Below are positions 9,692-26,062 of a stretch of 64,000 bases of DNA, piece by piece. The DNA comes from Gemmatimonadaceae bacterium (lineage in GTDB: Bacteria > Gemmatimonadota > Gemmatimonadetes > Gemmatimonadales > Gemmatimonadaceae), in NCBI GenBank assembly GCA_035718845.1, contig DASTGU010000053.1, positions 48,950 through 112,949 of the forward strand. Direction: 5' to 3'. Both the position numbers and the translations under genes were made by a program. Numbering within the stretch: position 1 is the first letter of the stretch; every line of letters starts with the position of its first letter. The notes beneath the pieces were generated by a model. It was not told where the DNA came from and searched no databases. It worked only from the letters and a program-made list of their open reading frames with translations.

Positions 9692-9720
9692 TTGACTTTT
9701 CCACATAAAACCGATAGGCT
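9692..9720 (+). promoter_or_regulatory. Sigma70-type dnaA promoter with a DnaA box (TTTTCCACA, 9697-9705) in the spacer
   Basis: TTGACT (9692-9697), 17 bp, TAGGCT (9715-9720), ending 8 nt before the dnaA ATG. The box fits TTWTNCACA. Confidence 0.8.
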
Positions 9721-9728
9721 AGCCGGTC

Positions 9729-11162
9729 ATGTCGCTCAGTCCCGCCGAAGTTTGGAAACTCCTTCTCGATCGTGCCCGCCAGGAGCTTCCTTATCAGACA
9801 TTTCAGACCTGGCTCGCGCCCACCGAAGCACTCTCACTCGAGGGAGGAACGATCTTCGTGGGAGCTCCCGACCAGTTTACTGCCGACTGGAACGAATCCA
9901 AACATTCCCAGTTACTGTCCAGCTACGCACCAATTGTCCTCGGACATCCACTCAATGTTGTGTTCAAGGTCATTGAGGAGCGGAAGAAACGCTCACAGAT
10001 GGATTTTTTCGTGAGCCCGCCTCCTTCGGCTGCTGCCAAGCTAGCTGCCCAGCAGAACGGCAACACCTCCACGCCACTGAGTGAACGCTACACTTTCGAC
10101 TTATTCGTAATCGGAAAGTCGAATGAGCTCGCCGCGGCCGCCGCACATGCGGTCAGTCAGGCACCGGGCAAGGTCTACAATCCATTGTTCATTTACGGCG
10201 ACACCGGACTAGGGAAGACACACCTGATGCAGGCTGTCGCCCACGAGACCCTGCAGAGAAACCCCAACACGCGCGTCACTTACGTTGGCACCGAGCAGTT
10301 CATGAACGAGCTGATCAGCTCGATTCTCGACCGCACTGCTCCCGAATTTCGTCGGCGTTACCGCGAAACAGATCTGCTGCTGATCGATGACGTCCACTTC
10401 CTCAAGGGTCGAAAGGAAACGACCCAGGAAGAGTTTTTCCACACCTTCAATGCGCTTTATGAGGCTGGTCGCCAAATCGTTCTTACCAGCGACCGGCCGC
10501 CATCAGAAATTGCCGGCCTCGAAGCACGGTTGATCAGCCGGTTTCAGTGGGGAATGGTTGCCGACATCGGGCTACCTGACTTCGAGCACCGTGTCGCCAT
10601 CCTAAAGCAGAAGGCTCAGCTCGATCGACTGGAGCTGACGATTCCGGATGACGTGATCCATTTCATCGCTGAACACGTTCGGTCCAACGTCAGAGAGCTG
10701 GAAGGATCCATCATCAAGCTTCTCGCCTATGCGTCATTGAAGCACAAAGACATCACCGTGGATGTCGCTCGCGAAGCACTCCGTGACAAGCTACGGGCAA
10801 TCGAAGGCCAGGAGCACGAACAGGCTGGATCTCTCAACATATTTACAATCCAGCAGGCCGTGGCCAAAGAGTGGGGCGTCACGGTCGACGGTCTCCGTTC
10901 CAAAACTCGCACAAAAACTCTAACGACGCCTCGCCAGATCGCGATGTATCTCACTCGCGAGCTTCTTTCGACTCAGCTGGTCGAGATCGGAAATGCCTTC
11001 GGCGGGCGTGATCACTCGACTGTCATCCACAGCCTCGAGAAAGTTCAGGAGACCATTACCCACGACACCGATCTCCGCACTCGCATCAATCGACTGCGGA
11101 ATAATCTGGAAGCTTTCAACTTCCGGACACTACCTCGTGTGGAAACATCGAAGGTTTCGTAA
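9729..11162 (+). CDS. dnaA: Chromosomal replication initiator DnaA
   Basis: TFDLFVIGKSN, YNPLFIYGDTGLGKTHL, LLLIDDVHFL, SDRPP, RLISRF, NVRELEG and FGGRDHSTV. Confidence 0.99.
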   Translation: MSLSPAEVWKLLLDRARQELPYQTFQTWLAPTEALSLEGGTIFVGAPDQFTADWNESKHSQLLSSYAPIVLGHPLNVVFKVIEERKKRSQMDFFVSPPPSAAAKLAAQQNGNTSTPLSERYTFDLFVIGKSNELAAAAAHAVSQAPGKVYNPLFIYGDTGLGKTHLMQAVAHETLQRNPNTRVTYVGTEQFMNELISSILDRTAPEFRRRYRETDLLLIDDVHFLKGRKETTQEEFFHTFNALYEAGRQIVLTSDRPPSEIAGLEARLISRFQWGMVADIGLPDFEHRVAILKQKAQLDRLELTIPDDVIHFIAEHVRSNVRELEGSIIKLLAYASLKHKDITVDVAREALRDKLRAIEGQEHEQAGSLNIFTIQQAVAKEWGVTVDGLRSKTRTKTLTTPRQIAMYLTRELLSTQLVEIGNAFGGRDHSTVIHSLEKVQETITHDTDLRTRINRLRNNLEAFNFRTLPRVETSKVS

Positions 11163-11356: not shown

Positions 11357-12469
11357 ATGCGTTTCACGATATCTCGGGAAAAGTTGCAGGAAGGCCTGGC
11401 AGCAGTAACCGCCAGTATCCCGGCGAAAACGACATTGCCGGTTCTCGCCAACATACTTCTTGAAACAACCGATAAAGGGATCAAGCTTTCAGGCACTGAC
11501 CTGGACATAGCTGTCAGTACTGAGGTGTTGGCTGATGTGGAGACAGCTGGTGCTGTCACTGTCCCAGCGAAGAAATTGAGTGAGATCGCACGTGAGCTCC
11601 CACCAGCCCCTGTGAAAATGGCTGCCGTTGGAGAACAGCGAGTTACTCTCGATTGTGGGCGCTCACGATTCAAACTCCTCGGCTTGCCGCGTGATGAGTT
11701 TCCGACATTCCCCGCGGTCAGGTTCAACGAGAGCTGGAGAATTCGCTCTGGAGACTTACAGCAGCTGATTGGTCATACATCGTTTGCAGTGTCTGCAGAA
11801 GAAAGTCGGCCAATACTGAACGGTGTGTTGTGGGAGCTACGGCCGGAACGCATGCGCATGGTGGCTACGAATGGCCACCGCTTGGCAAAGATGGAAATGC
11901 CGATAGACTCGGCAAGCGCACCCGCGAGTGATTTGATCGTCCCGCCGAAAGCGCTCGAGCAGGTGAGAAGACTCTTTCCAGCAGAAGAAGAACTTGAGAT
12001 CGCACGAGGCGACAATCACATCGGATTCAGATCTCCGTTCACGGCGGTCTTCACTCGCCTGATCGAGGGTCCGTATCCGAACTACGAGCAGGTAATCCCT
12101 CGTGATAACGATAAGGTCGCAGTTGCCGATAAGGTTGCTCTTTCCAGCGCGCTGAAGAGAATGTCGGTGATTGCCTCCGATCAGACTCACCGGATTCGCC
12201 TGTCGTTCAATGCAGGCATGCTCAAGTTCAGTGTGCAAACGCCGGATCTCGGTGAAGCGCAGGACGAGCTTCCTGTCCGCTACACTGGCGACCAGCTCGA
12301 CATTGGCTTCAATGCCAGCTATTTGCTCGAGATCCTGCGTTATATCCCGAGTGACGAAGTGAAGATGACGTTCAAGGCACCTGAAAGAGCTGCGACGCTT
12401 GAGCCGGAAGGATGGAAGAATCCAGCGTCGTACATGTGCCTGGTGATGCCACTTCGTCTCGTCGACTAA
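11357..12469 (+). CDS. dnaN: DNA polymerase III beta sliding clamp
   Basis: TLPVLANILL, GTDLD, SRPILNGV, VATNGHRL, RLIEGPYPNYEQVIP, IGFNASYL and VMPLRL. Confidence 0.98.
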   Translation: MRFTISREKLQEGLAAVTASIPAKTTLPVLANILLETTDKGIKLSGTDLDIAVSTEVLADVETAGAVTVPAKKLSEIARELPPAPVKMAAVGEQRVTLDCGRSRFKLLGLPRDEFPTFPAVRFNESWRIRSGDLQQLIGHTSFAVSAEESRPILNGVLWELRPERMRMVATNGHRLAKMEMPIDSASAPASDLIVPPKALEQVRRLFPAEEELEIARGDNHIGFRSPFTAVFTRLIEGPYPNYEQVIPRDNDKVAVADKVALSSALKRMSVIASDQTHRIRLSFNAGMLKFSVQTPDLGEAQDELPVRYTGDQLDIGFNASYLLEILRYIPSDEVKMTFKAPERAATLEPEGWKNPASYMCLVMPLRLVD

Positions 12470-25956: not shown

Positions 25957-25958
25957 GG

Positions 25959-26062
25959 CGTGGATAACTTTTGTGTGGAGAACTTCTACCCAGTCTGCGC
26001 ATGATTACGTAACACATTGGTACACAACGAGTTACGCCATCACTTATCAACAATGTTGATTA
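25959..26062. promoter_or_regulatory. Cluster of DnaA-box-like 9-mers between parB and the NIF3 gene
   Basis: TTATCCACG (rev 25959-25967), TTCTCCACA (rev 25974-25982) and TTATCAACA (26044-26052), each one mismatch from TTATCCACA; TAATCAACA (rev 26054-26062) has two. Confidence 0.6.

Follow-up and report, generated by a model that had tools for sequence, protein, structure and literature searches.

A conserved clamp-binding-type motif in the DnaA linker of Gemmatimonadales, a candidate link between the replication initiator and the sliding clamp

The dnaA-dnaN locus

The window analysed here is a stretch of 64,000 nucleotides (nt) from a Gemmatimonadaceae bacterium (GenBank assembly GCA_035718845.1, contig DASTGU010000053.1, positions 48,950 to 112,949), and the element in question is a pentapeptide, QMDFF, in the linker (domain II) of the replication initiator DnaA that it encodes. 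The peptide resembles the short motifs that bind the bacterial beta sliding clamp, DnaN. In the window, rnpA and yidC on the minus strand are followed by dnaA and dnaN on the plus strand, dnaN being the next gene, 195 nt downstream of dnaA. The features are listed below with window coordinates and protein residue numbers.

9729..11162, plus strand: dnaA, chromosomal replication initiator, 477 amino acids, Pfam match to three DnaA domains
9729..9971, plus strand: DnaA domain I, residues 1-81, with DnaA_N at 7-65 and a last strand at 76-81; AlphaFold2 predicted local distance difference test (pLDDT) 86-97 for residues 1-80
9990..10019, plus strand: conserved island R88-x-Q90-M-D-F-F94-V95-[S/A]-P97, from column identity in 58 Gemmatimonadales DnaAs
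9996..10010, plus strand: core clamp-binding-type pentapeptide QMDFF, residues 90-94, in a disordered segment and conserved in the order
10020..10076, plus strand: rest of domain II, residues 98-116, variable and Pro/Ala-rich
10077..10562, plus strand: DnaA AAA+ ATPase core (PF00308), residues 117-278, with Walker A G160-T164 and box VII R267/R271, from Pfam and alignments
10845..11045, plus strand: DnaA domain IV, DNA-binding helix-turn-helix (PF08299), residues 373-439, from Pfam
11357..12469, plus strand: dnaN, beta sliding clamp, 370 amino acids, the proposed docking partner (PF00712, PF02767, PF02768)

The window protein is a bona fide DnaA, not Hda. It matched DnaA_N (PF11638) with 37.2 bits, Bac_DnaA (PF00308) with 232.8 bits and Bac_DnaA_C (PF08299) with 94.5 bits, each above its cut-off, so that domains I, III (AAA+) and IV are all present; dnaN adjoins the gene, and the nearest database proteins are annotated DnaAs of Gemmatimonadaceae. 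Residues G160, K163, T164, D220, D221, R267 and R271 were invariant in alignments of 14 and of 81 DnaAs. We take R271 to be the arginine finger, by equivalence to R285 of the Escherichia coli protein.

Nucleotides 9996-10010 read CAG ATG GAT TTT TTC and encode Q90 M91 D92 F93 F94. The peptide containing the motif is KKRSQMDFFVSPPP, and the wider stretch is ...VVFKVIEERKKRSQMDFFVSPPPSAAAKLAAQQNGNTSTPLSERYTFDLFVIGKSN...; in its immediate surroundings, KKRSQMDFFVSPPPSAAAKLAAQQ, the upstream side is basic and the downstream side Pro/Ala-rich. QMDFF thus lies between domain I and the AAA+ domain, 9 residues past the last domain I strand and, in the window DnaA, about 26-27 residues before the pre-AAA+ box or AAA+ domain. 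In AlphaFold2 predictions from the 81-sequence alignment, domain I, the AAA+ domain and domain IV were all confident, and residues 88-99 had a pLDDT below 50 in all models kept. Such a profile, as modelled, is typical of short linear motifs on flexible tethers and not of packed elements. An initial annotation of the window had placed QMDFF at residues 90-94, within a flexible domain II with basic and Pro/Ala-rich flanks ahead of the AAA+ domain, and had named dnaN as the next gene; position, Pfam layout, predicted disorder and the three beta-clamp domains of the neighbouring product all agree with it.

Conservation in the Gemmatimonadales

DnaA was collected from 58 Gemmatimonadales genomes in three GTDB families. 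The motif, written as Q-x-D-[F/L/M]-F, was kept in every one of them, as QMDFF (45 proteins), QMDLF (8), QMDMF (4) or QRDLF (1); the relatives of cultured Gemmatimonas in this set have QMDMF or QMDLF. Column identity was 1.0 for R88, Q90, D92 and F94, 0.98 for M91 and V95, 0.90 for P97 and 0.78 for F93, falling to just 0.17-0.47 over linker columns 101-115. In a metagenome-assembled genome (MAG) of the order (L112) whose linker extends to ~80 residues, the motif reads QIDLF and its spacing from domain I is unchanged.

In the source genome, six-frame open reading frames (ORFs) of at least 150 amino acids amount to 2.08 million residues and contain 29 instances of the pattern Q.[DS][LFM]F, a chance rate of ~1.4e-5 per residue, or ~6e-4 per 40-residue linker. 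Its retention in 58/58 DnaAs further rules out a chance match, and on these comparisons QMDFF is not one. Nor is a DNA-level element, such as a DnaA box within dnaA, the cause of the conservation, since synonymous codons vary freely (Q90, CAG in 51 and CAA in 7; D92, GAT in 31 and GAC in 27; F94, TTC in 42 and TTT in 16; V95, four codons); selection must therefore act on the peptide rather than on the DNA.

Clamp motifs are recognised by an initial Q, an aliphatic or aromatic fourth residue and a fifth residue that is F or, rarely, L or W; by a placement that is exposed, disordered or terminal; and by forming an island of conservation amid drifting surroundings. QMDFF has these features. The variants found in Gemmatimonadota (QMDLF, QMDMF, QRDLF, QIDLF and QMDLW) stay within the clamp consensus.

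Box-like 9-mers near the motif occur only at 9697, 10435 and 11023. The first of these positions holds a one-mismatch DnaA box, TTTTCCACA (9697-9705), 24 nt upstream of the dnaA start. Three further one-mismatch boxes (25959-26052) are clustered in a 103-bp gap (25957-26059) between two minus-strand ORFs. Over the whole window the count of DnaA boxes is barely above chance, with 10 observed against 5.5 expected.

Distribution beyond the order

In a second class of Gemmatimonadota (family f10) all 11 DnaAs carry Q[M/I][D/E/N]LW at the equivalent place. None of 29 DnaAs sampled elsewhere in the phylum, from the remaining orders of the class that holds Gemmatimonadales and from two families outside that class, has the motif. 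The idea of a Q.DFF island running across the phylum, raised in the initial annotation, thus stands for Gemmatimonadales and, in altered form, for the second class, but fails for the remainder. The pentamer was also absent from all 71 DnaAs of other named phyla and from 30 Bacteroidota DnaAs; together, these three sets rule out a general feature of DnaA. It is a lineage-specific solution rather than a necessity.

A broad sample combined two sets: the nearest DnaA relatives among 1.8 billion proteins, clustered at 50% identity and represented by 150 sequences, and 80 named genomes spread over many phyla. Here the pentamer was essentially confined to Gemmatimonadota, the exceptions being an Ignavibacteria MAG, whose DnaA has QFDIF, and proteins of Margulisbacteria type. 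Among 118 full-length representatives (50% identity) it was found only in one Gemmatimonadota-type protein and in P0209, a Marinamargulisbacteria-type DnaA with QLSFF, whose 80%-identical relative reads EQLSFF. Saganbacteria-type DnaAs have QADLF or NDLF at the equivalent place.

The Ignavibacteria case was followed up in 70 DnaAs from the GTDB phylum that contains this MAG. Eleven carry the pentamer (QFDIF, QTDIF, QTEIF, QAEMF, QVEMF or QQSFF), and ~41 carry a hexamer, Q-x-x-[L/I]-x-[L/F] (such as QTSLPL, QTALPL, QACLPL, QTALDL, QTSLEF or QTEIEF), a count made with a loose expression that also matches 4 of the 71 control DnaAs, mostly within domain I. Pentamers and hexamers, together about 50 of the 70, occupy the same position, just after domain I. 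Clamp motifs are recognised in two forms, the pentamer QL[SD]LF and the hexamer QLxLxL, the latter represented by QLSLPL in Hda and QLVLGL in DNA polymerase (Pol) IV. Other than clamp binding, little would explain why one site should switch between precisely these two forms. By sequence, then, the motif recurs at the same position in distant lineages, including at least two other bacterial groups.

Two sets of DnaAs have other islands in the linker. In motif-less Gemmatimonadota (loci L064-L091) the spot after domain I is occupied by RLDFPE[IL] in family f6 and by xPE[IV][ST]V in family f7. The 30 Bacteroidota DnaAs (loci L261-L289) share a highly conserved island, [K/R]NPF[V/I]IPG[L/I], close to where domain II ends and the AAA+ domain begins. 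It resembles the clamp motif of MutL, QPLLIP, and Bacteroidota DnaA may use a different clamp or partner motif.

The clamp and other candidate clamp clients

By its sequence, the DnaN encoded beside dnaA is canonical. Solved clamps (6ams_A, E = 1.7e-67; E. coli, 1mmi_A) align with it over the full length, and it keeps the stretches GHRLA, PNYEQVIP and FNASYLL and the C-terminal VMPLRL, which presumably line the peptide pocket, as in the E. coli clamp.

Peptides close to QMDFF are found in other proteins of the source genome. DnaE has an internal QVSLF near the C-terminal end of the polymerase, where we would expect the internal clamp site of Pol III alpha to lie. Outside the window, a SRAP/YedK-type protein (PF02586; G000:C183:10708-11481, minus strand) ends in ...SRAQMDLF, and a DUF72 protein (PF01904; G000:C96:9562-10386, plus strand) ends in ...GEQMSLF. 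To judge from their sequences, both tails look like C-terminal clamp-binding tails; a clamp tail on DUF72 would, if real, be a hint that this family, whose function is unknown, is linked to replication or repair. The DnaE motifs of family f10 and of Ignavibacteria are QMGLF, QIGLF and QASLF. Covariation between the terminal W of the f10 DnaA motif and the DnaE motif was considered, but gave no informative signal, f10 DnaE having an ordinary QMGLF or QIGLF.

Search for Hda, YabA and DnaA-like paralogues

Known clamp-dependent control of DnaA works through adaptors, and these were sought in the source assembly, which is 93.8% complete. The Hda model TIGR03420 gave as its best match in this genome DnaA itself, at 113.9 bits against a cut-off of 194.8, and a search of 101 Gemmatimonadota genomes with the model yielded no protein past the curated cut-off. 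This model is narrow, in that only the E. coli protein of the control set passes the cut-off, so the result with PF00308 is the stronger evidence that the source genome has no paralogue. Apart from DnaA, PF00308 matched a single protein there and revealed no other DnaA-like AAA+ paralogue. The second match, on contig C209, was rejected as an Hda because it is an IS21 IstB lying beside its transposase. YabA (PF06156) had no match in the source genome, in a search whose controls matched the proteins of Bacillus subtilis and Lactococcus lactis. The absence of hda and yabA, put forward for checking in the initial annotation, was thus borne out in the source genome and, for hda within the reach of the model, in the wider set.

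The IS21-family element just mentioned (transposase and IstB helper ATPase, G000:C209:85-2652, L002) is the sole non-DnaA match to the DnaA ATPase model.

Most Gemmatimonadales also encode a protein of ~650 amino acids that contains two AAA+ modules of DnaA type but neither domain I nor domain IV (L104-L109, for example G026:C8:172500-178000; representatives P0135, P0147, P0160, P0169, P0129 and P0192). Neither the window's own genus nor genus g19 showed it. It was rejected as a hidden Hda, since in Gemmatimonadales it has no N-terminal clamp motif (its start is MELNPRFRFE...) and it is absent from the window's genus. The DnaA motif is kept whether or not this tandem AAA+ protein is present. 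A distant member, P0135, begins MSAGNQLQLF..., so that, as in Hda, a clamp-type motif immediately precedes the first AAA+ module.

Predicted mechanism and alternative explanations

The motif lies in predicted disorder, is under selection at the amino acid level and stays within the two known clamp-motif forms. From these comparisons we consider it probable that QMDFF is a genuine clamp-binding motif. The full statement, that it binds the clamp and exerts negative control of initiation, we favour with more modest confidence, both the docking on DnaN and the regulatory outcome being predicted from sequence. The interpretation offered in the initial annotation, a possible built-in Hda, is supported in part: the comparisons speak strongly for the identity of the motif, while ATP hydrolysis stimulated by the clamp would be a conjecture.

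In the mechanism we propose, the island RxQMDFFV[S/A]P, just after domain I, would insert into the hydrophobic DnaN pocket after clamp loading on DNA. Through this contact the products of ongoing replication would hold initiator molecules directly, with no adaptor of the Hda or YabA kind, and the likeliest outcome would be that re-initiation is held back. Two routes can be envisaged. In the first, similar to sequestration by YabA, clamps accumulating behind the forks would pull DnaA off oriC. In the second, a self-contained regulatory inactivation of DnaA (RIDA), AAA+ modules would be brought together on the clamp dimer, with R271 of one promoting ATP hydrolysis in another; in a variant of this route, clamp-bound DnaA-ADP would act on DnaA-ATP through box VII R267/R271. 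Sequestration or tethering fits the data as well as clamp-stimulated hydrolysis does. The distance from the motif to domain I is fixed, while that to the AAA+ domain varies across relatives from ~22 to 80 residues, which slightly favours a tether over a precisely positioned catalytic contact. In E. coli RIDA, according to work as it is cited in a review, DnaA uses its domain I to contact the complex of Hda and clamp; a motif next to that domain would place DnaA comparably.

Several points weigh against this interpretation. Absence from the 29 other Gemmatimonadota DnaAs means that the motif is dispensable for DnaA function, and the looseness of the hexamer expression bears on the count from the Ignavibacteria-containing phylum. 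Conservation of R88, V95 and P97 equals that of the core, which exceeds the usual requirement of a clamp motif and could reflect another or an additional partner. Finally, DnaA-DnaA arginine-finger contacts in ordinary filaments do not alone trigger fast hydrolysis, so that a catalytic effect like that of Hda would not follow automatically from co-tethering.

The strength of the flanks is one reason to consider that the island is merely clamp-like and docks some other partner, such as the helicase or its loader, another DnaA protomer or a lineage-specific regulator. Domain II does host varied short motifs, as the unrelated islands in the same linker elsewhere show (RLDFPEI, PE[IV][ST]V and NPF[VI]IPG of Bacteroidota). 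An unrelated partner would, however, hardly account for substitutions that remain within the clamp consensus (F, L or M at position 4, F or W at position 5, Q invariant), for the switch between pentamer and Hda-type hexamer in another phylum, or for near-identical peptides in DnaE, SRAP and DUF72 of the source genome, and we regard this explanation as unlikely.

Slightly less probable still is that the motif binds DnaN in a role that is not inhibitory: delivery of the first clamp or replisome to the open origin, a DnaA that travels with the fork as a transcription factor, or a mark for replication-coupled proteolysis like the degron in the proliferating cell nuclear antigen (PCNA)-interacting peptide (PIP) of Cdt1. 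The comparative case for clamp binding is identical under such a role, and the fixed spacing places the motif next to the domain that recruits partners, at a variable distance from the ATPase. Yet all known bacterial couplings of clamp and DnaA (Hda/RIDA and YabA), as covered in reviews, restrain initiation, and no protease adaptor or degron context was identified. It is very improbable that QMDFF belongs to the fold of domain I or the AAA+ domain, that it is conserved as a nucleotide-level element or that the match is due to chance; in favour of these readings there is only its closeness to domain I, against the low pLDDT in every model kept, the free synonymous variation and 58 of 58 DnaAs conserved where ~6e-4 was expected for a linker.

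A stronger version of negative control by the clamp is that, in phyla without Hda or YabA, DnaA is its own RIDA factor, a clamp-tethered molecule hydrolysing its neighbour's ATP via the arginine finger in an adaptor-free, replication-coupled inactivation. This version would cover Gemmatimonadales, the second Gemmatimonadota class, the Ignavibacteria-containing phylum and the Margulisbacteria/Saganbacteria, and we offer it tentatively, as a possibility with the odds against it. If it were true, Hda could be a stripped-down derivative of a clamp-binding initiator.

Comparison with known systems

The window DnaA may work like Hda or like YabA, judged by analogy. As in Hda of E. coli and HdaA of Caulobacter, a clamp motif lies N-terminal to a DnaA-type AAA+ domain with an arginine finger (here, motif at 90-94 and AAA+ at 117-278), and the hexamers QTSLPL and QTALPL of the Ignavibacteria-containing phylum come near to QLSLPL of Hda. 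The expected logic would also be shared, DNA-loaded clamps reporting that replication has begun. Unlike Hda, the motif is within a full-length initiator that keeps domains I and IV, with no separate adaptor protein; the window DnaA falls below the TIGR03420 cut-off; and the spacer between motif and AAA+ domain is variable. Stimulation of ATP hydrolysis of the Hda type is, for the window DnaA, a conjecture.

YabA of B. subtilis and other Firmicutes connects DnaA with DnaN, and its restraint on initiation comes from tethering or anti-cooperativity and not from hydrolysis. Should the motif act by sequestration, YabA would be a plausible functional analogue. Unlike the window DnaA, it is a separate, tetrameric zinc protein, whose C-terminal domain contacts both DnaA domain III and DnaN, and no Q..LF peptide in DnaA is involved.

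Like the canonical clamp motifs of Pol III alpha, Pol IV and MutS, among others, QMDFF opens with Q and closes with F, has an acidic or small third residue and a hydrophobic fourth, and sits in disordered surroundings. In the source genome, the local form of such motifs is seen in QVSLF of DnaE and in the terminal QMDLF-COOH and QMSLF-COOH of the SRAP and DUF72 proteins. Unlike the canonical clamp clients, the carrier is the replication initiator itself. By analogy only, the nearest conceptual parallel is the PIP degron of eukaryotic Cdt1, a licensing factor that has its own clamp motif and is switched off by the DNA-loaded clamp once S phase starts. Cdt1 differs from the QMDFF case in its clamp (PCNA), its motif and its ubiquitin-dependent destruction.

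Significance

As the initial annotation had supposed, a literature search found no description of a clamp-binding motif within DnaA, subscription-only papers being outside its coverage. Short linear clamp motifs and clamp-coupled control of the initiator are already known kinds; what would be new is the initiator itself as a clamp client. It would join the clients that compete for the two pockets of DnaN.

The shut-off of initiation after firing is understood mainly in Proteobacteria (Hda/RIDA and SeqA) and Firmicutes (YabA, Soj and SirA), and we know of no mechanism for most other phyla. A clamp peptide carried by DnaA would, if the proposal is right, be the simplest possible link from 'replication started' to 'stop initiating', and would parallel the logic of Cdt1 and PCNA. 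The switch between pentamer and Hda-type hexamer at one site of DnaA bears on the origin of Hda. For whole phyla this is a testable hypothesis, with a five-residue motif, an FF-to-AA control and cultured strains of Gemmatimonas and Ignavibacterium, and it concerns how several little-studied phyla may couple elongation to initiation.

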